This document shows positions 11,700-46,963 of a DNA stretch of 64,000 nt, in pieces. Position numbers and translations under genes: made by a program. Where the stretch lies: NCBI GenBank assembly GCA_964616915.1, contig CAZTSL010000002.1, positions 12,090 through 76,089 of the forward strand, read 5' to 3'. A model generated the notes under the pieces. That model was not told where the DNA came from, made no database searches, and saw only the letters and a list, made by a program, of their open reading frames with translations. The DNA comes from an uncultured bacterium. Lineage in GTDB: Bacteria; Myxococcota_A; CAZTSL01. Numbering within the stretch: the first letter of the stretch is position 1; each line of letters begins with the position of its first letter.

Positions 11700-11840
11700 C
11701 CATCTGCCTCCCAACAAAGAAGATCCACGGAAAGCCTGGCTCTTTGGACGCGGCTTGGAAAGCAAAATGAATACCACGCCCACGAGAAAAATCCTCCCTC
11801 TCCCAGAAAAAAGGACTGAATGGTATTTTTTCAGGATCGA

Positions 11841-11885: not shown

Positions 11886-12001
11886 TCCCCCGAACCTGTT
11901 TCTTTTCACACAGAATTTTGCGGGATTTCACACAAAAGGAGAGGGGAGGATCGCCTGGTGGCACGATACACCCACACGAAGGGGGGAGGAGGGGACGACG
12001 A

Positions 12002-18804: not shown

Positions 18805-21800
18805 ATGCGCTCCTGTGTTCGAAGGAACGACATGGACTCCCAGGCTCGATCTCTTGTGAACCCGACCTCCCCGAATTCCGGCAAGGATCCGATCGCGATC
18901 GTGGCAGTCGCGGCGGTCTCCCCGATCGGCAACGGCGCCGAGACGTTCTGGCGCAATACGTGCGGCAAGGCCGACGGGATCATCGAGGTGCCCCGGTCGC
19001 GCTGGAACCACGATCTCTACTACGACCCGGACCGCAAGGCCCCGAACAAGACCTATAGCAGGCTCGGTGGATTCGTCCTCGACGACGGCTTCGACCGCCG
19101 GGACCTCGGCGTCAATCCGATGGACGCCAGGGCGATGGATATCGTGATCCGGATGGCCCTGGCCGCGGCCTACGAACTCTTCTCGCAAAGCGGTTACCTG
19201 AAACGGGACTTCGACCGCTCGCGCTGCGCGGTGATCCTGGGCAACGCCAAGGGCGGGGTCGGCGTCCGGGACAACACGATCCGACAGGTCTACTTCCACG
19301 CGGCCTACGATGCGCTGCGCAGGAACGAACACTTCCGCAGACTCGCCCCCGATCTCCAGGAGGCGATCCTCGGCACCTGGCCGAAGGAGGCCCTGGCAGG
19401 GTGTACGCCGGTCCATGACGGATCGATGACCGGATGGCTCGGGAACGTCGTGGCAGGGCAGATCGCTCGCTATCTCGACCTCTCCGGTCCCAGCTTCACG
19501 ACCCATGCGGCCTGCGCGAGCGCGGTGGCCGCGCTCGCCTGCGCGGTCGATGGCTTGCAACGGGGAGAATTCGACCTGGCCGTGAGTGGAGGCGCATCGA
19601 GCTGCATGTCCCCCGCGGTCTTCGTGGAGTTCTCGAAGATCAACGCGCTCTCCCCCGACGGCAGCCGCCCCTTCGACGTGACGCGAAACGGCTTCGTGAT
19701 GGCCGAGGGGGCAGCCCTCCTCCTCCTCAAGCGCTATCACGACGCCGTGCGGGACGGCGACCGGATCATCGCGGTGATCCGGGGGATCGGAGCGGCAAGC
19801 GACGGGCGGAGCAAATCCCCGACCGCCCCCAGGGAGACGGGCCAGATTCTGGCGATCCGCCGGGCCCTCCAAGCCGCGGGGTGCGAACGCTCCGGCATCG
19901 GCCTCGTCGAGGCGCATGGCACCGCCACCCCCGTAGGGGATCGCACCGAGGTTCGCTCCCTCCAGAGGGTCCTCGGCCACCCCGCAAGCGACCTGCCGAT
20001 CCACCTCACCTCCGGCAAATCGCAGATCGGGCACACCCTCGGCGCGGCCGGCGCCTTCGGCGTGCTGCGGGCCGCCCTGGCGATCGAGACGGGCACGATC
20101 CCCCCTTCGATCCATTGCGAACGCCCCGATCCGGTGATCACCCCACCCTTCCAGGTCGCAACCGAACCGATCCCCTGGAAGGGGAAGGGTCCACGACGGG
20201 CGCTCGTCAACTCGTTTGGCTTCGGCGGTACCGATTTCTCGGTCGTCCTCGAAGAACCGGGCCCCTCTGGAACGCACGTGACGGTACGCGCAGATCTCCA
20301 GCAAAGCAAAGGAAACGATTCCACCCCCGCACCCGAGAGAGGATCCACGATGAACGCGGCGTTGCGCCCCCATGGAAGTCGTCTCGCTTTTCTCTTCCCC
20401 GGTCAGGGCTCCCAGTACGTGGGAATGGGCAAACCCCTCTACGACCGCTACGCCATCGTGCGGGAGACCTTCGAGGAAGCGGACGACGTGCTCCACAAAC
20501 CCCTCACGAAGCTGATCTTCGAGGGACCGGAGGAGGACCTCAAGGATACGAAGAACCTGCAACCCGCGCTCATCACGATCAGCGTGGCCTATTTCCGCCT
20601 CCTGGCCTCGCTGGGCATCCGTCCCGACCTGGTGGCGGGACACAGCCTCGGGGAATACGCCGCACTCGTGGCCGCCGAGGTCCTCGATTTCGCCGACATC
20701 CTCAAGATCGTGGCGCTGCGGGGAGAGTTCATGTCCCTGGCGCCGGGGAAGATGGCCGCGATCATGGCCGAAGAAGAGAAGATCGTCGCGGTGATCGAGA
20801 CGATCCCCGAAGTCTGGATCGCCAACCGGAACTCTCCGCGACAGTTCGTGATCTCCGGCTCCGTGGCGGGGATCGATCTTGCTTGCAAGAAACTGCGGGA
20901 GGCGGGGGTCAAACGGGTCTATCCCCTCCCCGTCTCCGCGCCGTTTCACTGCCCCCTCCAGCAGGGATTCTCCGACCGCTTCGCCGAGATCCTGGAAGGC
21001 TACGATTTCCGCCCCCCCACGATTCCGATCCTGACGAACGTCACAGGGGGCTTCCACAGCAACGACCCCGCCGAGATCCGCCGCCGGATGGTCGAGCAGT
21101 GCTACAGCTCCGTGAACTGGGTCGCCAACATGGAGACCGTCGAGGCCTTCGGCGTCCGCACCGTGGTCGAAACGGGTCCGGGCATCGTGCTCTGCGGCCT
21201 GGGCAACGTCATCTGGGATGGACGCATCGAAACGCTCGCCTTCCAGGACAACAAGCGCAACATCATCTTCGATGAACTCGTCGAAAAGCTTCAATGGGCC
21301 GTTGATCCTGGGATGCGCCACCCCGAGACGGATACCTCGGGGAAGGGGGTGACGCCGGGCCCGAAACCGGCGCGCGCGATCGAAACCACCCATACCGCGG
21401 AAGCGCCGCAGCGAAAAACCCCCACGGAGGGGGGGAGAAGGGAGAATGGCGGAATGGAGGAACGCAACGAACGATTCGTCTCACATCTCCTCGAGGACGA
21501 TACCCTCGAGCTGGCGAATGATTTCGCATTCTCCGCCTTCGCCCGCAGGCACCGGGAGATGATCAACGGGATGATCCGTCACCTCTACGAGACGGAACGA
21601 GCCTCCCGGCCGCAGGTCGTCGTGACCGGCGTCAACCTCGGTCTTCCCGGAAAAGCCCGCGCGGTCTTCGGCGAGGAGAACTGGAAGAGACTCGTCCAGG
21701 GAGAAAACCGTATCGATCCCCTCGATGAGGAGACGCAGCGGCGCATCCTCGAGAAGAACATCATCCGGACGCTCAAGAGCCCTACCGGTGGACTCCCGGT

Positions 21801-24800
21801 CGATGTCCCGGTCCGCAAGCTCTCCGAGGTGATCCACCTCGCCGGACAGCTCGGCGAGTTCGACCTGCGCAAGGACTACGGCATCGAGGAGCGTCTCGAC
21901 GAGACGCTCGACATCTCCTTCCGCCTCTCGCTCGCCTCGACGATCGAGGCGCTGCGCGATGCCTGCATCCCCCTGATCCCCCATTACGAGACGCTTGCGA
22001 ACGGGAAGCGCCGCTTCACGAAGTTCGCGCTTCCCCCCGAGATCGGAGACCGGACCTCGGTCTGGTTCGGCTGCGCCTTCCCCGGCCTGGAAAACATCCT
22101 CGACGAGGTCTCGAAGATGCTCGCCTGGCGTTTCACCTCCCTCAACCAGGGTGTCTTCGAGGAACTCGAACGGATCTACGGCGAACTCCTCGACGTCGTC
22201 GAAGATCCGGCCCATCGTTCGCAACTCTACCGGTGGTACGCGGAGGCTTTCTCGAAGCTCCGTGCCCATACCCCCAAGGAAGCGCCGGTCTATCGGTTCA
22301 ACCGCAAATTTCTCTTCCGGATCCTCGGGAGCATGGGGGCCTCCCAGATCGCCCAGTTCATCGGTGCAAGAGGGCTTGCGATCCAGTCGAACAACGCCTG
22401 CGCATCGACCGCGATCGCCAAGAGCCTCGGCGCGATGCTGATCCGGCAGGGGGAAGCCGATTGCGTGATCGTCACCGGCTCCGACGCCGTGACCGCCAGA
22501 CAGAGCATCGAGTACATCGGGGCCGGATTCCTCGCCTCCGGGGCGGCCACCACGGAGAAGATCGTGGAACGTGCGGCGAAACCCTTCGACCGGGATCGCA
22601 ACGGCATGATCCTCGGCGCCGGCGTGGGCACGGTGATCCTCGAGAAGGAATCCCTCCCCGAACGCCGGGGGGTCGTCCCCAAAGCGCTCTTCATCGCCGG
22701 GAAGATGGCCAACAGCGCCTTCCATGCCACCCGTCTCCACCCCCAGCACATCGCAGAGGTGATGCAGGATCTCTTCCGCGATCTCGAGCGTGACTACGGG
22801 ATCACTCCGCAGGAGATCGCCAGGGAGACGGTCTTCGTCTCGCACGAGACCTACACCCCGGCGCGAGGGGGGAGCGCCCAGGCGGAGATCCGCGCCCTGC
22901 GGGAGACCTTCGGCCCGGCGGCCAACCAGGTCCTCATCACGAACACGAAGGGTTTCACCGGCCATGCAATGGGCGCCGGGATCGAGGACGCCGCCTCCGT
23001 CGAGATCCTCGACACGGGTGAGGTCCCCCCCGTGGCCAACCTCGAAAATCCCGACCCCGAACTGGGAGACCTCCGGCTGAGCCGCGGCGAAAAGGCCGAT
23101 CCGAAATATGCCCTGCGCCTGGCCGCCGGCTTCGGCTCCCAGATCTGCATCACCTTCGAGGCCGCGGTTCCCGGTCCGAGCGGCCTGCGCGACGAAGCCC
23201 GACACGCGCGTTTCCTCGCCGAAGTCACCGGGATCGAACACCCCGAGACCGAGATCGTCCACCGGACCTACCGGGTGAAACTCCCCCCCAAGGACCAGGC
23301 CGTCCTCGAACGGATGCAACGCGCGCGCGCCAAGGAGAAACCCGTCACACCCGCTGCGGCTACGCCGGGGAAGCCCACCGCCACCCCTACGAGAGAATCG
23401 AGGGGAACGCCACCCGCCGCAAGCCCCACGACGACCACGGCCGGCAAGCCCGCCACCCCCACGCTCACGGAAACGGCCTCCCCCCTCTCCGCCAGCGATA
23501 TCACCGAGCGGGTTCTCGAAGAGGTCTGCGCGTTCACGGGGTATGAGCGCGACGAGGTCGATCCGAAGGCCCACATCGAGGACGATCTGGGGATCGACTC
23601 CAACAAGGCCCCCGAACTCATCGACTTCATCGAAGAGAAACTCGGCGTCGAGATCCCCAACGAGGTGGCCAGCCGCATCGAGACGATCGAGCAGATCGTC
23701 GAAGCCGTCTCCCAGAGGGGCAGCATCCCCACCCCACAGCCGACGCCGGACGCCGCCAAGGGGCATGCAGAGCCCCTCTCTCCGATTTCTTCTCCCCCCG
23801 CCCCCGATTCCGCTCCCAAGGGAGATCTCGTCTCCCGCGTGATCGAGGCGGTCTGCGCGTTCACGGGGTATGAGCGCGACGAGGTCGATCCGAAGGCCCA
23901 CATCGAGGACGATCTGGGGATCGACTCCAACAAGGCCCCCGAACTCATCGACTTCATCGAAGAGAAACTCGGCGTCGAGATCCCCAACGAGGTGGCCAGC
24001 CGCATCGAGACGATCGAACAGATCGTCGAAGCCGTCGCAAAGAACGGCAACCTTCCGGGCGCCTTCCGCCACCTCTTGCCCGCAGAGAAAGAAACCCCCA
24101 CAGAGACGCGTGCCCCGAACAGCGAAGCGGCCTCGATCGCCGAACGCGTGATCGAGGCGGTCTGCGCGTTCACGGGGTATGAGCGCGACGAGGTCGATCC
24201 GAAGGCCCACATCGAGGACGATCTGGGGATCGACTCCAACAAGGCCCCCGAACTCATCGACTTCATCGAAGAGCAACTCGGCGTCGAGATCCCCAATGAA
24301 GCAGCCAGCGCGATCCAGACCATCGAGGAGATCGTCGAGACGATCGAATCGGGACGAGAGAAGCGTGAACCGGCACCCCCGGCTGCCAGGGCAGGGGATG
24401 AAAGCGCTCCTCCCCAGGCGCCCCCCTCTCCGCCCTCCGGCGACAGGGGAACCCTCGAGGCCGCTCAGACCCCCCCCCCCACAGCGGAGGCGTCGTACGG
24501 CGAGATCCTCGAGGCAGTGATCCGGCATGTCTGCGCGTTCACGGGGTATGAGCGCGACGAGGTCGATCCGAAGGCCCACATCGAGGACGATCTGGGGATC
24601 GACTCCAACAAGGCCCCCGAACTCATCGATTACATCGAAGCGCAAATGGGCGTCGAGATCTCCAACGAAGAGGCGACCGAACTCGAACGAATCGAAGAGA
24701 TCGCCCGGATCGTCTTCGAGAAACGGAGCGCTTCCCCTCGCGTGGATCAGAGCCAGCCAGCCGCCTCACCCCCCGCCGAGACGACACACGAAGCCCGGCT

Positions 24801-27800
24801 CGAGCGGCGGATCGTGACCTGGCAGGAAATCGAGGGGGAGGGATCCGACGCCGCGTTCAGACAGATTTCCGATCTCCCGATCGCCCTGGTCGGCGCCCTT
24901 TCGGCGCTCACCCCCTTCCTCGAAGAAGCGCACGTCATCCCCTTCGACTTCGAGCAGCCGGACGAAGCATGGCGGGAGCGGGTCGCCGCAACCGGTCCCT
25001 TCGCTGGGCTCTGCTACCTCCACGGCGCTTCGGCCCAAAGGGTTCACACGGAGCACCTGGCCCGGCTCGCCACCCTGATCGCGGAACTTCCGATGCGCAA
25101 AGGCGCCTTCCTCCTGGCCCTTACCCCGGAACAGAGGAACGACGATCCCGAATTCGAGGCGGTCTGCGGCCTTTTCGCCTCGATCCAGCACGAACGATCG
25201 GAGGCGGTCGTCGTGCGGATCGCCTCCGGCATCTCCCTCGACGATCCCCTTCGCACCGTCGCCGAGCGTGTCCTCCGGGCACCGGGAGGGATGGAGATCC
25301 GTTTCTCGCAGGATCGCATCCTCACCCCGATCGTAACCAGCGCACCGCCCCTCGGTCCATGCCTCGATCTCACCCCCAGCGACACGGTCCTCCTCACCGG
25401 CGGTGCCCGCGGGATCACGGCCGGGATCTCGAAGGAGATCGCCCGGCGTCATCACTGCCGGATCGCGCTGATCGGAAGGACGCCGTTGCCGCAGGATCTC
25501 CCCGAGCATCTCCACGATCTCCATCCCCGGATGTCGCAGGAGGAATTGCGAGCCAAGATCCGGGAGCGGCTGAAAGAGCGTGGGGCTTCCGTGCGTCCCA
25601 CCGATGTGGCCCGGGAGATCGAACGGATGCGCGCCAGTCACGAGGCGGCCGAGAATATCGGCGCGATCTCGGAAGCAGGGGCAGAGGTCGTCTACTTCCC
25701 CTGTGACATCACGGATCGAAACGCCCTTGCCCGCACGATCGAGGAGATCGACGCGCGCTTCGGGCGAATCACCGGCATCGTTCACGGGGCGGGGATCAAA
25801 TGGGATGCTCCCCTCGAGAAGCTCACCCCCCGGCACTGGGAAGCCGTCTTTGCGCCCAAGGTCGGCGCGGTCGAAAGCCTGAGCGCCCTGATCGATCCCG
25901 ATTCCCTCCGCTTCTTCGTGGTCCTCTCCTCGATCGCCGCCCTCTACGGCAACGCCACGCAGGGGAACTACGCGGCGGCCAACCGCGCGGTCGTGGCCCT
26001 GATGCGAAACCTCCACGAAGCGCACGGTGTGCTCGCCAAGGCGATCTACTGCCCACCGATCAGCGGGGTGGGGATGGCCGCCGACCCCGGAATCCTCCGT
26101 CACCTGGCACAGCTCGGGATCGACTACGGCACACCCGAAGCGTTGGCCGCCTTCGTGGCCGAGGAGATCGCCGTCGCCGATCCCGAGGTCGCGGTCGCCT
26201 GGCATGGGCGGGTCGGCGCGCTGGCCCGTTACTTCGCGCAAGCCCCTTCAGGGGGGGATCCCGGCCGCTCCGGAGGGGGAAACGGCACCCGCCAGCCAAC
26301 GCCCCTCTCCCCGGCGGAAGGGAGTGATTCCTTCTTCGACCGCGTCCTCGAACACCAACCCAACGAGCGGATCGTGCTCGAAAAGACGTTCGACGTCGAA
26401 CGGGACATCACCCTCCTCGACCATGCGATCGAGGGAACACCGGTCGTTCCCGCCATCCGCGGAATCGAGGTCTTCCTCGCGGCCGCCTCGCGGCTCTTTC
26501 CCGGCAAACGGATCGAATCGCTCAAGGATCTGCGCTTCCTCAAGTGGCTCAAGCTCGAAGGGGGGAAACCCCTCACCGTCCGGGTGAAGGCGGAGGGGAC
26601 GCCCGAGGCGTGCAAGGTCTATATCGAACAGGAGATTCGCTCCCCCCGGGGCGCGCAGCCGGGGAGCTACCGGATCCACTTCTCCGGAACGGTCGTTTTC
26701 GCCGATCAGACGAGCGCCGCTTCAGGGCTCTTCTCCCTCGAGGGGCTTGAGGAGGCCGGGGTGTCTCCCAAGGAAATCTACCGTCCCGACCGTTTCTTCC
26801 ACGGCCCCGAGTTCCAGGTCCTCGGGGGAGTGAGCCGGTGGGGGATCGAGGGGGCGGAGGGAGAATACGCCCCACCGAAAACGATTCCGGGAGGCAATCA
26901 CCTTCCCCGTGGGATCCACCCCGAACACTTCCTCGTCCTCGAGGCACTCGAACAGCTCGCCGGGATCTTCGATATGCGCTTCCATGGAACCTTCGCGCTG
27001 CCGGCGGCATTCTCCCAGCTTCGCTTCATCGCCGCGCCGGTGGGTCCGATCCGGCTTCGCGTCATGGAAGTCGGCGGGGGGGCCAAGGAGCGCCGCTTCG
27101 ACCTCCTCGCCCTCGATCGTGCCAACCGGCCCGTGGTGAGCGCACGCGGTTTCACCCTCAAGGTGATCCGAACCCTTGTTCCCTCCGCCCGATTCCCCGA
27201 GGATACGCCGCCTGTCCCCCCCGTGCCGGGAAGCTCGAGCATGATCAACTCCCCCCTCCCCGGTGATGGGGGGAATACGCAGATGGCCATCGCCGAGGTA
27301 CCCCTCGATCGGCTCGAAGCCGCGATCCGCGAAAATCCAGCCCTGATCGAGGCATTCCTCGGAGAGGAAGAGATGGAGGCACTCCTGGCGATGCGCCACC
27401 GCCGCCGCCGCCTGGAGCGAATCGGAGGCACGATCGCCGCAAAGAAGGCCTTCCTGCGCTATTGCGCCAGGATCGAAGGGAGAACGCCTGCGCTCACTTC
27501 CCTCACCCTGCGGCATCGCAAGAGCGGAAAGCCCTATCTTTGCGTGGATGGCGACCCATACCCCGTGGCCCTCTCGATCGCCCACTCCGGCAAGCGGGCC
27601 GTCGCGCTCGTCGGAAGAAAAACCGCCGGCATCGACCTCGTCGATCTCTCCTCCTTCGGCTCCGAGGCGTTCAAGCGACGGGTCTATACGCTGCGCGAAC
27701 GGATCCTGGCCAGCTCGATCGCCAAGGCGGCGGAGATCGAGCACTTCTTCCAGGCCGGCGCGCCCCACCAGCTCACTTCCCCCCTGCCTGAGAGCGCCCT

Positions 27801-28026
27801 CATCGATGAGGATACGGCCCTCGCCCAGATCTGGGCGGCCAAGGAGTCGTTCGTGAAAGCGCTCGGCACCGGGTTCCGGGGACTCGACTTCCGGCAGATC
27901 GAGGTCAAGGAGATCCGGCCCGACGGCCGTGTCCTCCTCGATTTCCACCGCAACACCCTCCCCCCCTATCTCACCCGCGTCACGAAGAAGGAAGGCTACG
28001 TCCAGGCCACGACCCTCTTCGGATGA
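18805..28026 (+). CDS. PUFA-synthase-like iterative type I PKS/FAS megasynthase: KS - AT - second KS-like domain - 4 tandem ACP - KR - FabA-like DH - C-terminal Sfp-type phosphopantetheinyl transferase (3073 aa)
   Basis: KS1: TTHAACASAV, EAHGTATPVGD, KSQIGHTLGAAG. AT: GQGSQYVGMG, GHSLGEYAAL. KS2-like: QSNNACASTAIA, TNTKGFTGHAMGAG. Four ACPs: DLGIDSNKAPELI repeated four times. KR: LLTGGARGITAGISK. DH: LLDHAIEGTPVVPAI. PPTase: GIDLVDL and KESFVKALGTG. Confidence 0.9.
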   Translation: MRSCVRRNDMDSQARSLVNPTSPNSGKDPIAIVAVAAVSPIGNGAETFWRNTCGKADGIIEVPRSRWNHDLYYDPDRKAPNKTYSRLGGFVLDDGFDRRDLGVNPMDARAMDIVIRMALAAAYELFSQSGYLKRDFDRSRCAVILGNAKGGVGVRDNTIRQVYFHAAYDALRRNEHFRRLAPDLQEAILGTWPKEALAGCTPVHDGSMTGWLGNVVAGQIARYLDLSGPSFTTHAACASAVAALACAVDGLQRGEFDLAVSGGASSCMSPAVFVEFSKINALSPDGSRPFDVTRNGFVMAEGAALLLLKRYHDAVRDGDRIIAVIRGIGAASDGRSKSPTAPRETGQILAIRRALQAAGCERSGIGLVEAHGTATPVGDRTEVRSLQRVLGHPASDLPIHLTSGKSQIGHTLGAAGAFGVLRAALAIETGTIPPSIHCERPDPVITPPFQVATEPIPWKGKGPRRALVNSFGFGGTDFSVVLEEPGPSGTHVTVRADLQQSKGNDSTPAPERGSTMNAALRPHGSRLAFLFPGQGSQYVGMGKPLYDRYAIVRETFEEADDVLHKPLTKLIFEGPEEDLKDTKNLQPALITISVAYFRLLASLGIRPDLVAGHSLGEYAALVAAEVLDFADILKIVALRGEFMSLAPGKMAAIMAEEEKIVAVIETIPEVWIANRNSPRQFVISGSVAGIDLACKKLREAGVKRVYPLPVSAPFHCPLQQGFSDRFAEILEGYDFRPPTIPILTNVTGGFHSNDPAEIRRRMVEQCYSSVNWVANMETVEAFGVRTVVETGPGIVLCGLGNVIWDGRIETLAFQDNKRNIIFDELVEKLQWAVDPGMRHPETDTSGKGVTPGPKPARAIETTHTAEAPQRKTPTEGGRRENGGMEERNERFVSHLLEDDTLELANDFAFSAFARRHREMINGMIRHLYETERASRPQVVVTGVNLGLPGKARAVFGEENWKRLVQGENRIDPLDEETQRRILEKNIIRTLKSPTGGLPVDVPVRKLSEVIHLAGQLGEFDLRKDYGIEERLDETLDISFRLSLASTIEALRDACIPLIPHYETLANGKRRFTKFALPPEIGDRTSVWFGCAFPGLENILDEVSKMLAWRFTSLNQGVFEELERIYGELLDVVEDPAHRSQLYRWYAEAFSKLRAHTPKEAPVYRFNRKFLFRILGSMGASQIAQFIGARGLAIQSNNACASTAIAKSLGAMLIRQGEADCVIVTGSDAVTARQSIEYIGAGFLASGAATTEKIVERAAKPFDRDRNGMILGAGVGTVILEKESLPERRGVVPKALFIAGKMANSAFHATRLHPQHIAEVMQDLFRDLERDYGITPQEIARETVFVSHETYTPARGGSAQAEIRALRETFGPAANQVLITNTKGFTGHAMGAGIEDAASVEILDTGEVPPVANLENPDPELGDLRLSRGEKADPKYALRLAAGFGSQICITFEAAVPGPSGLRDEARHARFLAEVTGIEHPETEIVHRTYRVKLPPKDQAVLERMQRARAKEKPVTPAAATPGKPTATPTRESRGTPPAASPTTTTAGKPATPTLTETASPLSASDITERVLEEVCAFTGYERDEVDPKAHIEDDLGIDSNKAPELIDFIEEKLGVEIPNEVASRIETIEQIVEAVSQRGSIPTPQPTPDAAKGHAEPLSPISSPPAPDSAPKGDLVSRVIEAVCAFTGYERDEVDPKAHIEDDLGIDSNKAPELIDFIEEKLGVEIPNEVASRIETIEQIVEAVAKNGNLPGAFRHLLPAEKETPTETRAPNSEAASIAERVIEAVCAFTGYERDEVDPKAHIEDDLGIDSNKAPELIDFIEEQLGVEIPNEAASAIQTIEEIVETIESGREKREPAPPAARAGDESAPPQAPPSPPSGDRGTLEAAQTPPPTAEASYGEILEAVIRHVCAFTGYERDEVDPKAHIEDDLGIDSNKAPELIDYIEAQMGVEISNEEATELERIEEIARIVFEKRSASPRVDQSQPAASPPAETTHEARLERRIVTWQEIEGEGSDAAFRQISDLPIALVGALSALTPFLEEAHVIPFDFEQPDEAWRERVAATGPFAGLCYLHGASAQRVHTEHLARLATLIAELPMRKGAFLLALTPEQRNDDPEFEAVCGLFASIQHERSEAVVVRIASGISLDDPLRTVAERVLRAPGGMEIRFSQDRILTPIVTSAPPLGPCLDLTPSDTVLLTGGARGITAGISKEIARRHHCRIALIGRTPLPQDLPEHLHDLHPRMSQEELRAKIRERLKERGASVRPTDVAREIERMRASHEAAENIGAISEAGAEVVYFPCDITDRNALARTIEEIDARFGRITGIVHGAGIKWDAPLEKLTPRHWEAVFAPKVGAVESLSALIDPDSLRFFVVLSSIAALYGNATQGNYAAANRAVVALMRNLHEAHGVLAKAIYCPPISGVGMAADPGILRHLAQLGIDYGTPEALAAFVAEEIAVADPEVAVAWHGRVGALARYFAQAPSGGDPGRSGGGNGTRQPTPLSPAEGSDSFFDRVLEHQPNERIVLEKTFDVERDITLLDHAIEGTPVVPAIRGIEVFLAAASRLFPGKRIESLKDLRFLKWLKLEGGKPLTVRVKAEGTPEACKVYIEQEIRSPRGAQPGSYRIHFSGTVVFADQTSAASGLFSLEGLEEAGVSPKEIYRPDRFFHGPEFQVLGGVSRWGIEGAEGEYAPPKTIPGGNHLPRGIHPEHFLVLEALEQLAGIFDMRFHGTFALPAAFSQLRFIAAPVGPIRLRVMEVGGGAKERRFDLLALDRANRPVVSARGFTLKVIRTLVPSARFPEDTPPVPPVPGSSSMINSPLPGDGGNTQMAIAEVPLDRLEAAIRENPALIEAFLGEEEMEALLAMRHRRRRLERIGGTIAAKKAFLRYCARIEGRTPALTSLTLRHRKSGKPYLCVDGDPYPVALSIAHSGKRAVALVGRKTAGIDLVDLSSFGSEAFKRRVYTLRERILASSIAKAAEIEHFFQAGAPHQLTSPLPESALIDEDTALAQIWAAKESFVKALGTGFRGLDFRQIEVKEIRPDGRVLLDFHRNTLPPYLTRVTKKEGYVQATTLFG
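23500..24720 (+). repeat. Four tandem about 310-360 bp direct repeats, near-identical at nucleotide level, encoding the ACP domains of the megasynthase
   Basis: Repeat unit gtctgcgcgttcacggggtatgagcgcgacgaggtcgatccgaaggcccacatcgaggacgatctggggatcgactccaacaaggcc... seen starting near 23524, 23851, 24160 and 24531. The repeats also appear as repeated peptides in the antisense ORFs. Confidence 0.9.
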
Positions 28027-29262: not shown

Positions 29263-30978
29263 ATGAACGAACACGACCGTGCCACGATCCAGGAATTCTA
29301 CGCCCTCGTCGAAGCCGAATGGGAGCGGGGGTTGCGGGAACACCCCGAGCGAGCCACCTATCTTGGTGACCCTCGCTACAACGACCGCTTCACGGACCAT
29401 TCCCCGGAGGCGATCGAGGCGCGGATGCGCCGGGAGAAGGAAGTTCTCACCCGTCTCGAAGCGATCGATGCCACCCGATGGCCCGAGGAGGATCGGCTCA
29501 ACTACGACCTCTTCCGCAAGGAATACGAGGTTGCGGTGGCCGGGCATCCCTTCCCCGCCCATCTCCTTGCCGTAAGCCCCCTCTACGGCCCTCAGGTGGC
29601 ATTGCCGCAGCTCATGGCGGTCACCCCCTTCCAGACACGGAAGGACTACGAGGACGCGCTGGCCCGGATGGCCGCCTTCCCCCGCCTCGTCGATCAGACG
29701 ATCGACCTCCTTACCCTCGGGATCGAAAGGGGATGGACCCTGCCGGCCGTGACGCTGCGGGGGGTGCCGGACCAGATCGAGGCGCATCTTCGTTCCGCGC
29801 CGGAGGATACCCCCTTCTTCAAACCCTTCGCGAGCTTCCCCCCTACGATCGAACCCTCCCACGGAACGCGGCTGCAAGAGGCGGCCCTCGAACGGATCCG
29901 TGAGGCGCTCCAGCCCGCCTACCGGAAACTCGCCGACTTCCTCGTGAAAGTCTACCTTCCCGCCACGATCGAGACGGTCGGGATGCACGCTCTGCCCGAT
30001 GGCCGGGAGTATTACGACTACTGCTGCCGGCTCTACACGACCACCCCGCTCACCCCCCAGGAGATCCACGAGATCGGCAAAGAGGAGGTCAAGCGGATTC
30101 TTGGAGAGAAGAAGGCGTTGATCGAAGAGATCGGATTCGCGGGGGATCACGCGGCCTTTCTCGAATTCCTCCGCACCGACCCCCGCTTCTATTACGAGGA
30201 TGCGCAGACTTATCTGCGGGACTACCGCGACATCTGCAAGCGGATCGATCCGATGCTCCCGAAGCTCTTCAAGACGCTCCCCCGGATCCCCTATGGCGTG
30301 ATCCCGGTTCCCGACTATGCCGCACCCTCCTCTCCCGGCGCTTACTATCAGCCCCCGGCACCCGATGGTTCCCGCCCCGGCTACTTCTTCGCGAACACCT
30401 ACGATCTGCCCTCCCGTCCGAAGTACGAGATGGAGGTGCTCGCCCTCCACGAGACCGTGCCGGGCCATCATCTCCAGATGGCGCTGGCACTCGAGCGGAC
30501 CGACCTCCCCCCCTTCCGGAAGCACGGCTTCCATACGGCCTTCATCGAGGGGTGGGGGCTCTACGCGGAAGGGCTCGGTGAAACACTCGGCCTCTACACC
30601 GATCCCTACTCGAAGTTCGGCCGGCTCTCCAACGAGATCTGGCGCGCCTGCCGCCTCGTCGTCGATACCGGGCTTCACGCCTTTCAGTGGCGCAGAGAAG
30701 ATGCGATCGCCTACATGAAGGCGCATACGGCCAACACGGATCACGACATCGAAGTCGAGGTCGATCGTTACCTCGTGATGCCAGGACAGGCGCTCGCCTA
30801 CAAGATCGGGGAGATCCGGATCCGCCGGCTCGTGGAGAAGGCCCGCGAATCCCTCGGAACTCACTTCGACATCCGCGATTTCCACGACCTCCTCCTGCGA
30901 AACGGGCCACTGCCCCTCGATCTTCTCGAGGCCCAGGTCGATGGCTACCTCGAGGCTCATCCCACGACCCGCGGATGA
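29263..30978 (+). CDS. DUF885-family protein (predicted metallopeptidase-like)
   Basis: HETVPGHHLQ zinc-binding-like motif and overall DUF885 composition, 571 aa. Confidence 0.6.
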   Translation: MNEHDRATIQEFYALVEAEWERGLREHPERATYLGDPRYNDRFTDHSPEAIEARMRREKEVLTRLEAIDATRWPEEDRLNYDLFRKEYEVAVAGHPFPAHLLAVSPLYGPQVALPQLMAVTPFQTRKDYEDALARMAAFPRLVDQTIDLLTLGIERGWTLPAVTLRGVPDQIEAHLRSAPEDTPFFKPFASFPPTIEPSHGTRLQEAALERIREALQPAYRKLADFLVKVYLPATIETVGMHALPDGREYYDYCCRLYTTTPLTPQEIHEIGKEEVKRILGEKKALIEEIGFAGDHAAFLEFLRTDPRFYYEDAQTYLRDYRDICKRIDPMLPKLFKTLPRIPYGVIPVPDYAAPSSPGAYYQPPAPDGSRPGYFFANTYDLPSRPKYEMEVLALHETVPGHHLQMALALERTDLPPFRKHGFHTAFIEGWGLYAEGLGETLGLYTDPYSKFGRLSNEIWRACRLVVDTGLHAFQWRREDAIAYMKAHTANTDHDIEVEVDRYLVMPGQALAYKIGEIRIRRLVEKARESLGTHFDIRDFHDLLLRNGPLPLDLLEAQVDGYLEAHPTTRG

Positions 30979-31340
30979 ACTTTCTTTCCCCTCCAGGCGA
31001 AAAAAGTTCCAGGCTCCGGCATTTCTTTGGCGCTTCCCCTCGAGGTCGGCGTTTCCTCTGCCGATATTGTTGGAGTTGCCGACGCCCCCTGTCGTCAAAC
31101 TCCACAGGGAACACACCGGGTGGGGATGTCCCTCTTTACAGGAAAAGGAAAGCGATCGAAGGGAATCTTTGGGGAAAGGTGGATATCTGCTGCGAATCTG
31201 CCCCGATTCCTGGGGAAAGAGCGTTGATGGTATAGGACTTGCTTTCTCTTCCGTTGTCCGTTCCACGATGCGGATGACCACTCCAAAACCGTGCGGTCTG
31301 CCCCTGGGGGCAAGTCAGGGTCTTTGGAGGAGGGTGTCCC

Positions 31341-31363
31341 AATGTTGTACAATGTTGTACAAT
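31341..31363. promoter_or_regulatory. Tandem perfect palindrome TTGTACAA-TG-TTGTACAA (operator-like) about 95 bp upstream of the first small-peptide gene
   Basis: aaTGTTGTACAATGTTGTACAATcg read at 31341-31363. The two 8-bp palindromes are offset by 10 bp (31345-31352 and 31355-31362), one helical turn, in an AT-richer region. Confidence 0.4.
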
Positions 31364-31456
31364 CGCCGCACACGGACAAGGCGGTTTCTTCACGGCACGG
31401 GGCTTCGCCCCGCTCGTGAGACAACGCAACCCTCAAACCCTTTTGGAGGAAGTCGG

Positions 31457-31753
31457 ATGAAACGGATTCTTTGCATGTTGACCCTCGCGATCATGGGTCT
31501 CTCCCTCGTCGGCGCCTCGGCGCCCATGAACGTGGACAACACGTGCAACATCGAGGCGGTGAACTACACCCCCGCCGACATGGATGCCCTCGGCATCGGT
31601 GACGGCAGCGTCATCAAGGATCTCTGCAACCGCGCCTGCGAGGCGGGCCGCGAGAAGTGCGTCGCCCAGGACCAGGGCCGTGGCATCATCGAAAATCTCT
31701 GCAACAAGATCTTCGATGCCTGCTCGGCCAAGTGCGATTCGATCGGCGGCTGA
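31457..31753 (+). CDS. Small secreted cysteine-rich peptide (98 aa precursor, six Cys in mature part), copy 1
   Basis: MKRILCMLTLAIMGLSLVGASAPMNVDNTCNIEAVNYTPADMDALGIGDGSVIKDLCNRACEAGREKCVAQDQGRGIIENLCNKIFDACSAKCDSIGG. Sec signal peptide, ends GG. Confidence 0.7.
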   Translation: MKRILCMLTLAIMGLSLVGASAPMNVDNTCNIEAVNYTPADMDALGIGDGSVIKDLCNRACEAGREKCVAQDQGRGIIENLCNKIFDACSAKCDSIGG

Positions 31754-31823
31754 ACCCCGGCTTCATCGCTCGCAAGGTCGATTCCCTGAATTCCAAGCCT
31801 GAATGGAAACCATGGAGTGAATC

Positions 31824-32123
31824 ATGAAGAAAGTCATTACCGTCCTGAGTCTCTCCCTCATCCTTGGCCTCTCCCTCGTCGGCGCCTCGGCGCCCATGAA
31901 CGTGGACAACACGTGCAACATCGAGGCGGTGAACTACACCCCCGCCGACATGGATGCCCTCGGCATCGGTGACGGCAGCGTCATCAAGGATCTCTGCAAC
32001 CGCGCCTGCGAGGCGGGCCGCGAGAAGTGCGTCGCCCAGGACCAGGGCCGCGGCATCATCGAGGGACTCTGCAACAAGATCTTCGACGCCTGCTCGGCGA
32101 AGTGTGAGTCGATCGGCGGCTGA
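31824..32123 (+). CDS. Small secreted cysteine-rich peptide, copy 2 (tandem paralogue)
   Basis: MKKVITVLSLSLILGLSLVGASAPMNVDNTC...CESIGG. The mature part is about 97 % identical to copy 1, with about 190 nt identical at DNA level. Different signal peptide. Own RBS-like ggagtgaatcATG. Confidence 0.7.
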   Translation: MKKVITVLSLSLILGLSLVGASAPMNVDNTCNIEAVNYTPADMDALGIGDGSVIKDLCNRACEAGREKCVAQDQGRGIIEGLCNKIFDACSAKCESIGG

Positions 32124-32401
32124 TCGCAAGGATCCCTTTCCGACCGGACCTCCCGGAAGGATCTGGTCCACGCATCGCGTCGAAAGGACCTTCTGGGGTG
32201 CCGGTCACCGGCCGGCACGGCCCAGTTCCGGTCCACGGAACGAGACGAGAGGACGCTTCATCGAGGGTGTCCTCTCGTCTTCGCTTTTGAGGGGGAGTGC
32301 CCTCTCCTACGCTCCCCCCCGCAAATGCGGATGCCGGAATGTTTCAAAGGGGCGCCGACGGAGGGACGGTGTGCCCCCGCGGCGCTCCTCCCTCCCGGGA
32401 G

Positions 32402-32596
32402 ATGCGAATGCCGGAATTCACGAAGCTCATGAAGCTCATCGTCATGATCCTGCTCGGTAGTCTTCTCTTCGCCCTCTTGCTCCGAAGACTGGCCACCCTT
32501 CCCATCGAGCCGAAGTTCGAGGAGGGTCGAGGTGCCGCCTATCGAGTGATCTCACCGGCCCACGGTTCTCCGAGCCCTGCTGCGATGCGGGCGTAG
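32402..32596 (+). CDS. Possible small single-TM protein (64 aa); overlaps the 3' end of convergent ansA, doubtful
   Basis: MRMPEFTKLMKLIVMILLGSLLFALLLRRLATLPIEPKFEEGRG... GC3-rich codons, but 58-nt convergent overlap with ansA. Confidence 0.2.
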   Translation: MRMPEFTKLMKLIVMILLGSLLFALLLRRLATLPIEPKFEEGRGAAYRVISPAHGSPSPAAMRA

Positions 32597-38810: not shown

Positions 38811-39545
38811 TCAGATCCCGAAGAGCTTGATCGCCACCCCGGAGAGGGCGATCGCCACGCCGGCCAGGGTATTCGCGTAGCGTTCCAGCGGACCAAAGAG
38901 GGAGACCTGCAAGGCGTAGTACCCCAAGGTCACGAGAAGGAGCATCGTGCCGATCGTCACCGTCCCGAAGACGAGCGCGACCCAGAAGGTCCCCCAGGCC
39001 CCCATCGTGGCCGCAGGCACCATGAGGAGGGGAATGAGCGGCTCGCAGGGGCCGAGCACGAAGATGATGAAGAGCCCCCAGAAGGTCAGTTGCTTTCCGG
39101 AGAGCGTCGAAGCATCGTGAAGATGAGCGTGGTGATGGGGGTGGTGAGGGTCGTGGGGGTGGACATGGACGTGCCCATCGTGTTCGTGGATGTGACGGTA
39201 GGCTCGCCGCTGACGGGCAAAGGACCACCCCGCGTACGCCAGCCCGAAGACGATGAGGAGCCAGGCCGAAAGGGAACCCCGACTCGCCTCGATCGTGGTG
39301 AGCTTGGAGAGACCGATCCCAAGACCGATGCCAATGGCGCCGAGCACCACCGAGGAGAGGACGTGACCGAGACCACAGAGCGCGGTGATCGCAAGCACCT
39401 TGGTCAGCGACCACTTCCGGGCCCGGCCGAGCACCACGAAGGGGAGCGTGTGATCGATCCCGATCGCGGTGTGAAGGAGGGCGACACTCGTCGCCGTCGT
39501 CAGAAGTACGAGCAGTGTGGGTTCATTCATCGAGGAGACCTCCAT
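38811..39545 (-). CDS. NicO/NiCoT-like nickel/cobalt transporter membrane protein with His-rich loop
   Basis: Six to eight TM helices. LLHTAIGIDHTLPF (Hx5DH-type motif). Cytoplasmic loop HIHEHDGHVHVHPHDPHHPHHHAHLH. Overlaps the sodX 3' end, forming an operon with sodN-sodX. Confidence 0.65.
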   Translation of the reverse strand: MEVSSMNEPTLLVLLTTATSVALLHTAIGIDHTLPFVVLGRARKWSLTKVLAITALCGLGHVLSSVVLGAIGIGLGIGLSKLTTIEASRGSLSAWLLIVFGLAYAGWSFARQRRAYRHIHEHDGHVHVHPHDPHHPHHHAHLHDASTLSGKQLTFWGLFIIFVLGPCEPLIPLLMVPAATMGAWGTFWVALVFGTVTIGTMLLLVTLGYYALQVSLFGPLERYANTLAGVAIALSGVAIKLFGI

Positions 39546-39838
39546 GCATCCAAAGGCCCGGAACGGGGGATCCTGGCCGTGACTCTTCCGAGAAGCCGGC
39601 TCAGGGGGATCGAACCGAAGCTGCGGCTGTCGGTGCTCTCCCTCGGGTTGTCCCCGAGGAGGTGGAGACGATCCCCCCGAACCGCGGCAACCCGTTTGAC
39701 GAGCCGTACCCCGCGGCGGAAGGGATGAAGAAAGACGACGATCTCACCGGGCCGGGGCGCGCGGCGGCGATAGCAGCGGGGATCGACGAGGACGATCTCT
39801 CCCCCTTCGAGCGTGGGCGACATCGAATCACCCGACAC
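39527..39838 (-). CDS. sodX: Ni-SOD maturation peptidase SodX (truncated S26 signal-peptidase-like)
   Basis: GDSMSPTL (S24/S26 catalytic Ser box) and GDNPRESTDSR. About 100 aa, immediately downstream of sodN. Probable GTG start. Confidence 0.75.
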   Translation of the reverse strand: MSGDSMSPTLEGGEIVLVDPRCYRRRAPRPGEIVVFLHPFRRGVRLVKRVAAVRGDRLHLLGDNPRESTDSRSFGSIPLSRLLGRVTARIPRSGPLDAWRSPR

Positions 39839-39925
39839 CCGGAAGCGCCACCGCCGGCCGAGGAGCCAGAGGAGGTACTCCTTGAGATCGGCGCGCGCTA
39901 CCCGCCCGGCCGCCCGATCGGCGTC

Positions 39926-40399
39926 TCACCCCGCGGTATACCAGGCGACCTCGCGCCCCTTCGTGGCCCAGAAGATCTCATGGATCTTCTTGATCGTGTC
40001 GAGCAGTTCCTGCGCATGTTCGAGGCTGACTTCCACCTTGACCGCGGAGCAGAGTTTGGCGGCCTTCCAGAAGATGTCGTGCAGATCGGGGTACTGCTGC
40101 AGGTGGGGCGGCTTGAAGTAGTCGGTCCAGAGGACGAGGAGTTCCGTCTTGGCCAGGTGCGCCTGCGCCTCCTTGATCGCGATGTAGCGCGAGAGCGTGT
40201 TGTGGTAGGCCACGAGCGCCTTGGCATCCCCCGGATCGGGGGGCGTGAGATCGAGGATCTTCTTCGTCATCGAGAGGACCGCTTCCGCGGCGATTCTCGC
40301 CGAGGCGGGGTCGTAGACCCCACAGGGACCGTCACAGTGCGCCTCCACACGTTCCGCGGGAAGCCGATGCAGGAGTCTCTCCGTCAATTTCTCGAGCAT
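39926..40399 (-). CDS. sodN: Nickel-containing superoxide dismutase precursor
   Basis: Leader MLEKLTERLLHRLPAERVEA followed by Ni-hook HCDGPCGVYDP. Four-helix-bundle length of 157 aa. RBS GAGGAG. Confidence 0.9.
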   Translation of the reverse strand: MLEKLTERLLHRLPAERVEAHCDGPCGVYDPASARIAAEAVLSMTKKILDLTPPDPGDAKALVAYHNTLSRYIAIKEAQAHLAKTELLVLWTDYFKPPHLQQYPDLHDIFWKAAKLCSAVKVEVSLEHAQELLDTIKKIHEIFWATKGREVAWYTAG

Positions 40400-41272: not shown

Positions 41273-43618
41273 ATGCACGTCCGGATACGCAACCTTTGGG
41301 CTCTGGGGTGCGGTGTGCTCCTCTTTTTCTTTTTCGCTGCCGGCGAACTTCGGGCCCAGGGGCAACCCCACCAGACGATCCTCCTCCTCGATCATTCGAA
41401 GAGCATGAAGGGGAACGATCCCTTCTTCCTGAACCACTTCGCCGCCCACCTCCTCGTCGATCTGGCGGCCCCCCGTGACGAGATCGGCATCTTCGACTTG
41501 CAATCCTCCGTCGTTCCGATGGATCCGGTCGCGGGGAGGAAAGAGGCGCTCCATGCCGCCATCGACCACCTCTCCTATGGGGGGAAAACCCCCTGCGCGA
41601 CCCCCCTTTCCCGCGCCCTTACGGAACTGAAGGAGAAACAACGGCCGGAGGCGCTTGCGAGTATCGTCTTCCTCACCGATGGGGTCTGCGACGAGGACGA
41701 TCCGATCGAGAAAGCGCTTCCCGCGCTGCAAGCGGCCAGGATCCCGGTCTTCACGATCGCGCTGGGGAAAGAGACGGAACATCGCCGGCAGTTGCAGCGG
41801 CTCGCCGAGCAGACGGGAGGAATCCCCTTCGCCGTGACGGACGCGGCGGATCTACCGGAGGTCTTCGCGAAACTCGCCGGCCGTCTCCATGGGGCGGAGT
41901 ACCAAAGCGGCATGCTCGCCCGTGGAGAACAGATCTTCGCCGCCGCCCCCTACCTCGAACGGATCGTGCTCCTCGCCGCGGGGAAGGTCGAGACGGCCCG
42001 TTTCTTCGGGCTCCATTCCCCCACCGGTCCGGTGGCCCTCGATGGGAAGAACGCCCGCATCCGCTCCTTTGCGAACCACCGTCATCCCAACGCCCCCGAG
42101 GTCTATACGATCGTGGAGATTCCGGAACCGCCCCCCGGAGAGTGGCGCTACGAGGTGGAAGGGAAAGAAGAGAAATTCTCCGTGGCCGTGATCCAGATCT
42201 TCGACCTCGTCCTCTCCCTGGAAGGGCATCCGCAACGGGTCGAGGGGAAGGAAACCGTGGAACTCGTGGCCCGGCTGGCAACCTCCCGGGGAAGAGTGCC
42301 CGATCCCGCGTTCCTGCGGCAGGTTTCGGTGACCCTCCATCACCGCCCCCCCGGCGGCGATTTTCAGCGTTGGGGTCCCCTCCCCTTCGACGGGAAAGGG
42401 GCGTTCCGCACCCGTCTTTCCCTTCCGGAACCGGGGGAACACGTCTTCTACGCCGTGGCGCGCTACCAGCAGCATCTGAACCGCCGCAGTCCGCTTCGCT
42501 CGATCGAACGCCTGGAGCCCCCCCCCGAAGGGTGCCGCCTTCGCTTCCTCGAGGCCGAGGCGTGCCATCGGAAGGGGGATGTCCCCTTCCCCGTGAGCGT
42601 GCGCCTCGAATGCGCCCCTCCCCAGACCCTCTCCGCGGCCTACCAGGAAAGCTGCACCGGCCGCCTCTTTGCCCAGTCCCCCGGGGGAGAGGGCTTTGGC
42701 GAGGTCGCATCCTTCTCGTCGGAGCCGGGAGGACGCTACACGGCCCTCGTAACGCTGCCCGAGGAGGGGCATCACCGGCTCCAGGCCCGCCTCGAGTGTC
42801 CGAACACCCGTTTCGTCTCCGGAACGAGTGATCTTTTCGTGGGGGAACTCCCCCCCCTTCTCCCGCTCGATTTCGGAACACCGGAGGGGGGGAGCGTGGC
42901 GACCCGAGGGATCGATCTTTCCCCCTGGCGTCCCTTCCTTCCCCTCGACATCACGTTCCGGCCGGAAGCGCTCACCGGCCCTTCGGCCGCATCGATCGCG
43001 GTCGATGCCGACGGAGCCGGTGGACTCCTCGCCACGCTGAAGATCGCGGGGTGCCGCTCCGAGGGGGAAGGGAACGGGGCGATCGCGATCGTCCCGAAGG
43101 GGTGTCTCTCTCCCGTCGCGCTTCCCGTCTCCTACACGGTCCACCCCACCCCCTTTCTCGCCTGCTATCGGCGGATCTATCTCGGGACGCTGGCGCTGCT
43201 CGGGGGCGCTTTCCTCCTCTACGGATTCCTCTCCCCCCCGGCATTCTCCCCCCGCCGAACGATCTGCTGGAGTGCCTCCCGGCAGGGGTGCGTGGAAAGG
43301 GACCCCACCGCCGCCACGGAGGTGCTCTTCGGGGCGTTGCATGGCCACGGGAAGGGGCGGCGTCGCTGGTATACCCCCGCCCGCCTCTACTTCGGCGGTC
43401 CCGACGACTTCCTCGGACCCAAGGGGGAAACGCCCGTGGCCTGGCTCGAAGCCACCCGCTCCGGAATCCTCCTCGTCACCCTCCAGCCGGGACAGACCTT
43501 CCTGTGCACCGAGGGGGGAGGAGAAGAACCGATCACGATGCAGGCGACCCCCCTCCATTACGGCACCGTCTACCGCGTCGATATCGGGGGTGAACACCGC
43601 TATTTCGAAATCCACTGA
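41273..43618 (+). CDS. Membrane-spanning von Willebrand factor A (vWA/MIDAS) domain protein, 781 aa; first gene of the vWA-tubulin-like cluster
   Basis: Start MHVRIRNLWALGCGVLLFFFFAAGELRAQG (signal/anchor). MIDAS LLLDHSKSM (DxSxS) plus VFLTDG. Second TM IYLGTLALLGGAFLLYGFL near residue 700. C-terminal about 130 aa tail. Confidence 0.8.
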   Translation: MHVRIRNLWALGCGVLLFFFFAAGELRAQGQPHQTILLLDHSKSMKGNDPFFLNHFAAHLLVDLAAPRDEIGIFDLQSSVVPMDPVAGRKEALHAAIDHLSYGGKTPCATPLSRALTELKEKQRPEALASIVFLTDGVCDEDDPIEKALPALQAARIPVFTIALGKETEHRRQLQRLAEQTGGIPFAVTDAADLPEVFAKLAGRLHGAEYQSGMLARGEQIFAAAPYLERIVLLAAGKVETARFFGLHSPTGPVALDGKNARIRSFANHRHPNAPEVYTIVEIPEPPPGEWRYEVEGKEEKFSVAVIQIFDLVLSLEGHPQRVEGKETVELVARLATSRGRVPDPAFLRQVSVTLHHRPPGGDFQRWGPLPFDGKGAFRTRLSLPEPGEHVFYAVARYQQHLNRRSPLRSIERLEPPPEGCRLRFLEAEACHRKGDVPFPVSVRLECAPPQTLSAAYQESCTGRLFAQSPGGEGFGEVASFSSEPGGRYTALVTLPEEGHHRLQARLECPNTRFVSGTSDLFVGELPPLLPLDFGTPEGGSVATRGIDLSPWRPFLPLDITFRPEALTGPSAASIAVDADGAGGLLATLKIAGCRSEGEGNGAIAIVPKGCLSPVALPVSYTVHPTPFLACYRRIYLGTLALLGGAFLLYGFLSPPAFSPRRTICWSASRQGCVERDPTAATEVLFGALHGHGKGRRRWYTPARLYFGGPDDFLGPKGETPVAWLEATRSGILLVTLQPGQTFLCTEGGGEEPITMQATPLHYGTVYRVDIGGEHRYFEIH

Positions 43619-43742
43619 AAGGCAATGGGGGCAATGGAGAGAGCCACCATGCAAGACGCACCGGGGAGAGCCAACGAACGAGATCTCCATCGCAACGCGG
43701 GGAGCATCCTTTTCCCACGGCAGCCATCAGGAGGAATACGCC

Positions 43743-46925: not shown

Positions 46926-46963
46926 GGACGGCCAGCAGGGCGCCATGGCCCATCGAGTCTGGA

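Follow-up and report, generated by a model that had tools for sequence, protein, structure and literature searches.

The stretch of DNA analysed here, referred to as the window throughout, comprises 64,000 nucleotides (nt) of contig CAZTSL010000002.1 from an uncultured bacterium (assembly GCA_964616915.1), and carries two neighbouring plus-strand open reading frames (ORFs) of 98 and 99 amino acids (aa), separated by 70 nt, for small cysteine-rich proteins that are nearly identical to each other (Table 1). In this study, we provide evidence that these ORFs are two real genes in a stand-alone operon, which runs from a promoter region and leader hairpin to a structured 3' untranslated region (UTR) and a strong terminator, that they match no known protein family, and that gene 1 most likely overwrote part of gene 2 by gene conversion. 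The coding reality of the pair is supported by the base composition at third codon positions, by the ratios of synonymous to non-synonymous changes between orthologues and by the GGAGG and GGAG ribosome-binding sites. The GC content at third codon positions (GC3) reaches 0.87 in gene 1 and 0.90 in gene 2, the top values among the genes of the window, with an overall GC content of 0.62-0.63 in both, thus the two genes are native and their codons strongly biased. A preliminary description of this DNA had recognised the two neighbouring genes and the gap of 70 bp correctly, but had placed them in an AT-richer island; the low GC content belongs to the 480-bp spacer upstream of the pair (0.55, among the three lowest 400-nt windows), and a foreign AT-rich island is rejected on the GC3 values, low GC being confined to the upstream promoter and intergenic spacer.

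Both N-termini resemble signal peptides of n-h-c organisation when read from the sequence, with MKR or MKK followed by about 15 hydrophobic residues and VGASA, and both proteins terminate in SIGG, in line with the earlier account of a Sec signal and a mature region of about 76 aa ending in GG. Export would putatively proceed through the Sec pathway, as predicted from these signal-like N-termini. Signal peptidase I tolerates no proline at +1, and cleavage after ASA would place a proline there, thus cleavage after VGA, which yields a mature protein of 78 aa beginning with SAPMN, seems at least as likely as cleavage after ASA. Between the two genes, the initial 10-12 codons, which span the n-region and the greater part of the h-region, show no relatedness in sequence, and the divergence of the signal peptides noticed in the preliminary description holds for these parts; the 76-aa mature regions are set apart by two residues, N58G and D72E, in agreement with the near identity it had reported (N to G, D/E).

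The mature region contains seven cysteines (positions 8, 35, 39, 46, 60, 67 and 71) rather than the six first counted. The last six are arranged as C-x3-C-x6-C-x13-C-x6-C-x3-C, a spacing that is mirror-symmetric about Arg53 in a QGRG turn; the pairs 35/71, 39/67 and 46/60 each sum to 106, and the chance of three such co-centred pairs is 0.004-0.01. On a helical projection each cysteine triplet falls within an arc of 40 degrees. The protein is acidic, with 12 D+E versus 7 K+R, and contains neither His nor Trp. AlphaFold, run on the single sequence and again on a four-sequence alignment, gave the same all-helical layout both times (predicted local distance difference test, pLDDT, 72 and 67), with helices predicted at residues 17-23, 28-41, 43-49/53 and 57/59-74. 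The mirrored cysteine spacing together with this prediction suggests an antiparallel helix-loop-helix with three nested cysteine pairs, which are most simply taken as disulfides, and with Cys8 left over. A haem c protein is ruled out by the absence of CXXCH and of His, a lipoprotein by the absence from the sequence of a lipobox, and an Fe-S protein such as a high-potential iron-sulfur protein (HiPIP) by the signal, which is of Sec rather than Tat type and thus speaks against cytoplasmic insertion of a cofactor.

That no family could be recognised by eye was borne out by every search, and no match to a housekeeping family was obtained. Pfam and NCBIfam gave no family for the protein at E <= 10, the only PHROGs matches (E 0.18-0.3) lie over the signal peptide, and tblastn against plasmids and phages as well as scans of IMG/VR and JGI metagenomes returned no match. 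A word-indexed search of 5.8 billion clusters retrieved nothing beyond the protein's own cluster, which has four members, and an exhaustive phmmer search of 1.84 billion representatives retrieved only the protein itself and P0005, a 4,617-aa adhesin with DUF11/CARDB-type repeats. Kinship with this adhesin is rejected: its E value of 1.9e-10 arises from the summing of seven repeats of 16-25 bits each, no cysteine of the query is aligned to a cysteine, and the repeat is Cys-free and the query predicted helical. Among PDB sequences the best match was non-significant, at E = 0.4, and concerned a PxDMDALGxxDG motif of FwdD, which is subunit D of formylmethanofuran dehydrogenase.

Among ~15 billion proteins the sole relatives are RME04295.1 and RME04296.1, from a metagenome-assembled genome (MAG) labelled "Deltaproteobacteria bacterium" (GCA_003694145.1, contig RFKX01000286.1). 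In this sister MAG the pair occupies the same position, after a gene for a DUF885 protein, and the two loci are ~90% identical in DNA. A synteny search anchored on DUF885 covered 185k species genomes, a set to which the source genome does not belong; the nearest DUF885 relative in it was 51% identical, and its DUF885 loci (~0.9 Mb) held no ORF with the cysteine signature and no copy of the double palindrome described below. By these sequence searches, and by fold searches, which likewise gave no relative, the pair is a genus-restricted orphan family that matches no known protein family.

Comparison with the sister MAG indicates that both genes are under purifying selection, since synonymous and non-synonymous changes stand at 6:1 in gene 1 and 15:5 in gene 2, in line with the selection on the peptide proposed earlier. 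The history of the two copies was read from a four-way comparison over a shared 264-nt block of the genes of the window (W1, W2) and of the sister MAG (L1, L2). In the window, the last 255 nt of gene 1 and gene 2 differ at 9 sites, all of them in the final ~75 nt, and W2 equals W1 over a tract of 182 nt within which L2 and L1 differ at 17 sites. Over the initial 186 nt of the block, the tract included, W2 and L2 show 18 differences, and in its 3' part 3; for W2 and W1 the corresponding counts are 3 (all of them outside the tract) and 9. Within the 3' 73 nt, five sites (203-205, 245 and 248) are paralogue-specific and common to both genomes, and judged by these sites the duplication preceded the separation of the two lineages. 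The "recent duplication" of the preliminary description is therefore not upheld, and gene conversion, which it had offered as the other choice, turns out to be the most parsimonious reading of the four sequences: gene 1 most likely overwrote a 182-nt part of gene 2 in the lineage of the window. Alternatively, a sevenfold or greater acceleration restricted to L2 would be required, which we judge less likely.

A duplication produced by assembly error is rejected, since the second MAG has both genes with distinct flanks and since the repeat interrupts an assembly made independently. The latter is the Logan assembly of run SRR7905022, whose contig SRR7905022_9560 ends 24 codons into gene 1, in keeping with the way in which assemblers stop at true exact repeats. 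This run, in which the DUF885 protein of the window is found, represents sediment from the source pool of Jinata Onsen, described in a bioRxiv report (10.1101/428698) as an anoxic, Fe(II)-rich hot spring. By breaking short-read assemblies, the 182-nt exact repeat may also explain the rare intact recovery of the pair.

Table 1. Features of the two-gene locus and its surroundings, with DNA identity to the sister MAG
Feature	Position in window	Strand	Identity to sister MAG	Remarks
Conserved promoter-region block, TCTTTGGAGG...TACAAT	31321-31365	+	79%, lowered by 8-bp insertion	its start marks the return of conservation between the two genomes, following a stretch of 57% identity
Two perfect TTGTACAA palindromes	31345-31352, 31355-31362			10-bp tandem repeat spanning 31345-31362
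5'UTR			93%	
Leader (5'UTR) hairpin	31389-31420	+		UCACGG..CGGGGC-UUC-GCCCCG.CUCGUGA; -19 kcal/mol, z = -3.5, 0/200 shuffles as stable
Shine-Dalgarno GGAGG of gene 1	31445-31449	+		7 nt 5' of ATG
Gene 1	31457-31753	+	97.6% to orthologue	98-aa precursor; predicted 20-22-aa signal peptide; mature part encoded from 31523; codon changes 6 synonymous, 1 non-synonymous
Putative donor copy of 182-nt tract	31499-31680	+		100% identical to 31869-32050; block positions 9-190
Intercistronic spacer	31754-31823	+	73%	70 nt; without terminator; fold z = -0.2
GGAG of gene 2	31814-31817	+		6 nt 5' of ATG
Gene 2	31824-32123	+	92% to orthologue	99-aa precursor; mature part encoded from 31893; codon changes 15 synonymous, 5 non-synonymous
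Putative conversion tract in gene 2	31869-32050	+		W2 has the gene 1 state at 14 sites where L2 differs
Structured 3'UTR	32124-32241	+	96.6%	118 nt; fold z = -3.1
Intrinsic terminator	32242-32292	+		17-bp stem, then U-rich UUCGCUUUUG; z = -4.9
3'UTR and terminator	32124-32292	+	96-97%	
Neutral spacer			57-80%	
62-aa single-transmembrane ORF	32408-32596	+		real gene; 8 synonymous, 4 non-synonymous changes; 9/13 differences at codon position 3

At the RNA level, the GC hairpin announced for the 5'UTR is present, although its loop is a UUC triloop here and not the UUCG loop claimed; in the sister MAG the stem is kept through an indel and carries a canonical c(UUCG)g tetraloop (GGGGC-UUCG-GCCCC, z = -2.8). 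The 3'UTR and terminator together exceed gene 2 in identity between the two genomes, with the neutral spacer for comparison (Table 1), and fold at -94 kcal/mol (z = -5.3, or -3.1 without the terminator), and where substitutions in the 3'UTR fall inside predicted pairs, every pair is retained as G.U. Rfam gave no gathering-level match in the window, and over 30900-32500 its sole match was a chance-level one (E = 0.13) to a Pyrobaculum small nucleolar RNA on the opposite strand. The 3'UTR could be a 3'UTR-derived small RNA or an mRNA-stabilising element.

Within the promoter region the palindrome TTGTACAA occurs twice, one helical turn apart, as the preliminary description had seen, and the pair can also be read as TGTAC-N6-GTACA. 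The two exact copies in the 64-kb window compare with 0.02 expected, two copies being reached in 0 of 100 shuffles, and the composite TGTA-N8-TACA occurs once against 0.00 expected. Each unit holds TACAAT, a -10-like hexamer, and two of the three TANAAT motifs on the plus strand of the window lie within the repeat. The first TACAAT (31348-31353) stands at the same distance in both genomes from the conserved TTTGGAGG block, and likewise from TCTTTGGAGG at the start of the conserved block, and because of this constant placement the first TTGTACAA unit looks like the -10 box of the putative promoter, the -35 being weak (TTGGAG, 3/6 to consensus). A sigma-54 promoter and an extended -10 were both rejected on spacing, as read from the sequence. 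In the sister MAG, TTGTACA forms three units, the periods being 10 and 8 bp, and the extra unit there, shortened to 8 bp, sits downstream of the first TACAAT. The additional units, located over the presumed transcription start, resemble products of slippage, derived from a slippage-prone 10-bp repeat that would carry the -10 hexamer, and they could also bind a repressor as a candidate site. Literature matches for TTGTACAA were Gateway attB primers.

It could also be proposed that the TTGTACAA pair is a dedicated operator, recognised by a dimeric regulator (e.g. a CRP/FNR-like protein on TGTAC-N6-GTACA) that governs a regulon. In favour of this, both palindromes are perfect, with 10 bp from one to the next, the composite is present once where practically none is expected, the promoter block is kept in the sister MAG, and the extra copies at the presumed start site would occupy the usual position of a repressor. 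However, the rest of the window holds no further copy even with one mismatch allowed, the number and phasing of the units vary between the two genomes in a way that fits replication slippage, the -10-like TACAAT in the unit accounts for the conservation without any regulator, and no regulator gene adjoins the pair among the neighbours scanned against Pfam (30 of the ~36 called ORFs, ~20 kb on each side, 12-30978 and 32408-54260). We thus regard a dedicated operator as rather unlikely and keep the first unit as the probable -10 box.

Further upstream, a 54-nt island at 31059-31112 is 96% conserved amid a spacer conserved at 75-80%; an imperfect hairpin is possible there (GGAGTTGCCGACG...CGTCAAACTCC), the fold being non-significant (z = -0.5 and -0.3 by strand). 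In addition, GATGCGGATGACC at ~31287 resembles ATGCGRATGCCGGAAT, a direct repeat found at ~32325 and ~32403, ~80 bp apart, before and overlapping the start of the 62-aa ORF.

The genes upstream of the pair encode a PfaA-like polyunsaturated fatty acid synthase, a ZnuA-type binding protein and the DUF885 protein, and downstream the 62-aa single-transmembrane (TM) gene is followed by asparaginase, PfkB and HflX genes on the other strand. The 62-aa ORF has GGGAG before its ATG and a TM segment that is invariant in comparison with the sister MAG, at its 3' end it shares 58 nt with the convergent asparaginase gene, and it has no Pfam or PHROG match. Among the ORFs scanned against Pfam there was no glycosyltransferase, C39 peptidase, or ATP-binding cassette (ABC) exporter or peptidase-containing ABC transporter (PCAT), and neither a Dsb enzyme nor a transcription factor adjoins the pair. 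The only radical-SAM gene lies ~19 kb off, beside a molybdopterin oxidoreductase cluster. Several other regions of the window are of separate interest. The PfaA-like polyunsaturated-fatty-acid/polyketide synthase (18805-28026) is a protein of 3,073 aa with the order KS-AT-4xACP-KR-DH and a 4'-phosphopantetheinyl transferase domain fused C-terminally. In the minus-strand cluster at 2195-11909, a molybdopterin oxidoreductase exported by Tat is encoded together with several 4Fe-4S proteins, a YHS-domain protein and a multihaem c-type cytochrome; the radical-SAM gene (12002-12949) stands beside this cluster, as does the gene for a HAMP histidine kinase (14816-16600). At 43272-52290, a 1,217-aa Tubulin_2-domain protein is followed by two large ORFs, one with a weak nSTAND NTPase match, and this region may be a conflict or defence-type module. 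At 39527-40399, on the minus strand, a nickel superoxide dismutase, notable given the anoxic source pool, adjoins a short S26/S24-type peptidase that is likely the SodX maturation protease.

Taken together, we consider it on balance probable that the locus is a self-contained operon for two Cys-stapled exported miniproteins which are kept alike by conversion. The transcript would run from the promoter region through a ~95-nt leader with its stabilising hairpin, gene 1, spacer, gene 2 and 3'UTR to the terminator, and would yield two near-identical acidic proteins of ~8 kDa, which would leave the cytoplasm unfolded by Sec. Outside the cytoplasm, residues ~28-74 would form the antiparallel helix-loop-helix, in which Cys 35, 39 and 46 of one helix would face 71, 67 and 60 of the other and most likely form three nested disulfides, resulting in a miniprotein of high stability, fit for a spring at ~60 C. 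Cys8, in the acidic N-terminal segment, would be free for an intermolecular disulfide or a ligand. An old duplicate would thus be held alike by gene conversion under purifying selection, and copies kept alike in this way point to dosage or to a homo- or hetero-oligomer and not to diversification.

Several observations weigh against parts of this explanation. The fully identical tract could in principle be an artefact of short-read consensus; the consensus scan gave no full match to a sigma-70 promoter, which bears on the promoter assignment; export is predicted from a signal read by eye in the sequence; the AlphaFold models are only of moderate confidence; and the four sequences compared resemble each other too closely to offer covariation support for protein or RNA structures. 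In addition, the habitat is anoxic and rich in Fe(II) and the window contains no Dsb gene, thus the six cysteines could stay reduced and bind metal.

As to what such miniproteins would do, a stable extracytoplasmic binding or defence protein ranks first among the candidate functions, and we put it forward as plausible, though short of an even chance. A more ambitious proposal, namely a new family of Sec-exported bacterial miniproteins whose hairpin is locked by three nested disulfides without need of modifying enzymes, whose specific extracellular activity is antimicrobial, protease-inhibitory or soft-metal binding, and whose expression runs via the TTGTACAA repeat and the structured 3'UTR, is speculative and as a whole seems unlikely.

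Among more specific functions, a pair of Sec-dependent, bacteriocin-like antimicrobial peptides with a glycocin-like or class II-like hairpin, and with the downstream 62-aa membrane protein as immunity factor, deserves consideration. The products are small, predicted to be exported and Cys-stapled, and confined to one lineage, a real small TM gene lies directly downstream, and nested-disulfide helix-loop-helix peptides from thermophiles are antimicrobial (PMC12457901). However, the mature peptide is acidic, its copies are under purifying selection and homogenised rather than diversified, the scanned neighbourhood lacks, within ~30 kb, an exporter, a glycosyltransferase and a C39 peptidase, the strong terminator separates the TM ORF from the pair, and searches of plasmids and phages found no match; moreover, the NCBI label Deltaproteobacteria implies a diderm cell, in which Sec reaches the periplasm only. 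An antimicrobial role is thus improbable for the pair, in comparison with the broader binding or defence function.

By architecture, the closest bacterial analogues are the glycocins (sublancin, glycocin F, thermoglycocin/orniglycocin), which combine a helix-loop-helix with nested (C-x6-C)2 disulfides and extra cysteines, with three-disulfide members known from a thermophile (PMC12457901). The core C39-x6-C46...C60-x6-C67 has the (C-x6-C)...(C-x6-C) spacing of glycocins, which are likewise small peptides, some of them thermophile-derived, and the mirrored spacing and helical models obtained here are compatible with a putative helix-loop-helix with two nested disulfides. On the other hand, glycocins are RiPPs (ribosomally synthesised peptides that are modified post-translationally) of Firmicutes with a core of 37-50 aa and a non-Sec leader cut by a C39 peptidase-ABC exporter, and their clusters need an S/O-glycosyltransferase of the SunS/GccA type, whereas the proteins of the window have 76-78 aa, a Sec-type signal, a third, outer C-x3 staple and no sequence similarity to them, and such a glycosyltransferase is absent from the scanned ORFs; membership in this RiPP class is therefore rejected on the glycosyltransferase, the C39-PCAT exporter and the leader. 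Sec-dependent class II bacteriocins (enterocin P, lactococcin 972) likewise are small peptides with a Sec signal and a small membrane-protein gene just downstream, but they are typically cationic and Gram-positive, none has this cysteine pattern, and no library gave a match.

Alternatively, the cysteines might remain reduced, so that the protein would serve as a periplasmic metal or thiol buffer in which the six helix-facing thiols bind soft metals (Cu(I), Zn, Cd, Fe(II) or As(III), among others), perhaps as a four-helix dimer like that of copper-storage proteins. Consistent with such a buffer are the cysteine stripes on a single face of each helix, the acidic composition without His and Trp, the anoxic and iron-rich source pool, the ZnuA-type metal-binding protein encoded two genes upstream and the signature of gene dosage. 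However, no DUF326/Csp or other metal-binding family was matched even at E <= 10, ZnuA belongs to a separate transcription unit beyond DUF885 and the 480-bp spacer, no metal-responsive regulator was seen and no recognisable Zur/CsoR-type box when the sequence was read against the consensus boxes, and a perfect mirror in the spacing classically marks disulfides between helices; we therefore hold a metal buffer to be as doubtful as an antimicrobial. Csp1 and Csp3 (DUF326) have Cys-lined helix faces too, and Csp1 is exported, but Csps are four-helix bundles of ~120 aa with 13-18 cysteines and Csp1 leaves the cell folded by Tat, whereas the mature protein of the window has 76 aa and seven cysteines, six of them in one predicted hairpin, and a Sec-type signal. 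Membership in the DUF326/Csp family is rejected on these features and on the absence of a Pfam match.

In eukaryotes, the twin-CX3C and twin-CX9C (CHCH) proteins and the plant alpha-hairpinins bear mirrored cysteines on antiparallel helices, which form nested disulfides after export to an oxidising compartment. The pair has the mirrored-Cys principle in common with these proteins, which differ in having two disulfides instead of the three predicted here and other spacings, and show no homology. Plant alpha-hairpinin trypsin inhibitors present their reactive site on such a disulfide-stapled hairpin, and a standard-mechanism protease inhibitor with the apex loop QGR53G as reactive site would fit the location of Arg53, exactly central to the three cysteine pairs in a Gly-flanked loop, and the adjoining DUF885 gene with its HETVPGHH motif, which we take to be a zinc peptidase signature, but it is very improbable given that there is no homology to any inhibitor family, that the likeness is of architecture only, and that DUF885 lies in a separate transcription unit and has no signal peptide.

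The reading that we favour thus remains that of two Cys-stapled exported miniproteins. Should the predicted fold be true, they would represent a genetically simple, modification-free and triple-stapled hairpin from a thermophile, a possible miniprotein scaffold, and a further case of nested-disulfide hairpins arising independently in bacteria. Beyond that, the pair is one among many lineage-restricted secreted hypothetical proteins, without tie to an open biological question. The locus itself, with an old duplicate most likely homogenised by conversion, would provide a small and clean textbook example of concerted evolution by gene conversion that is visible in MAGs.

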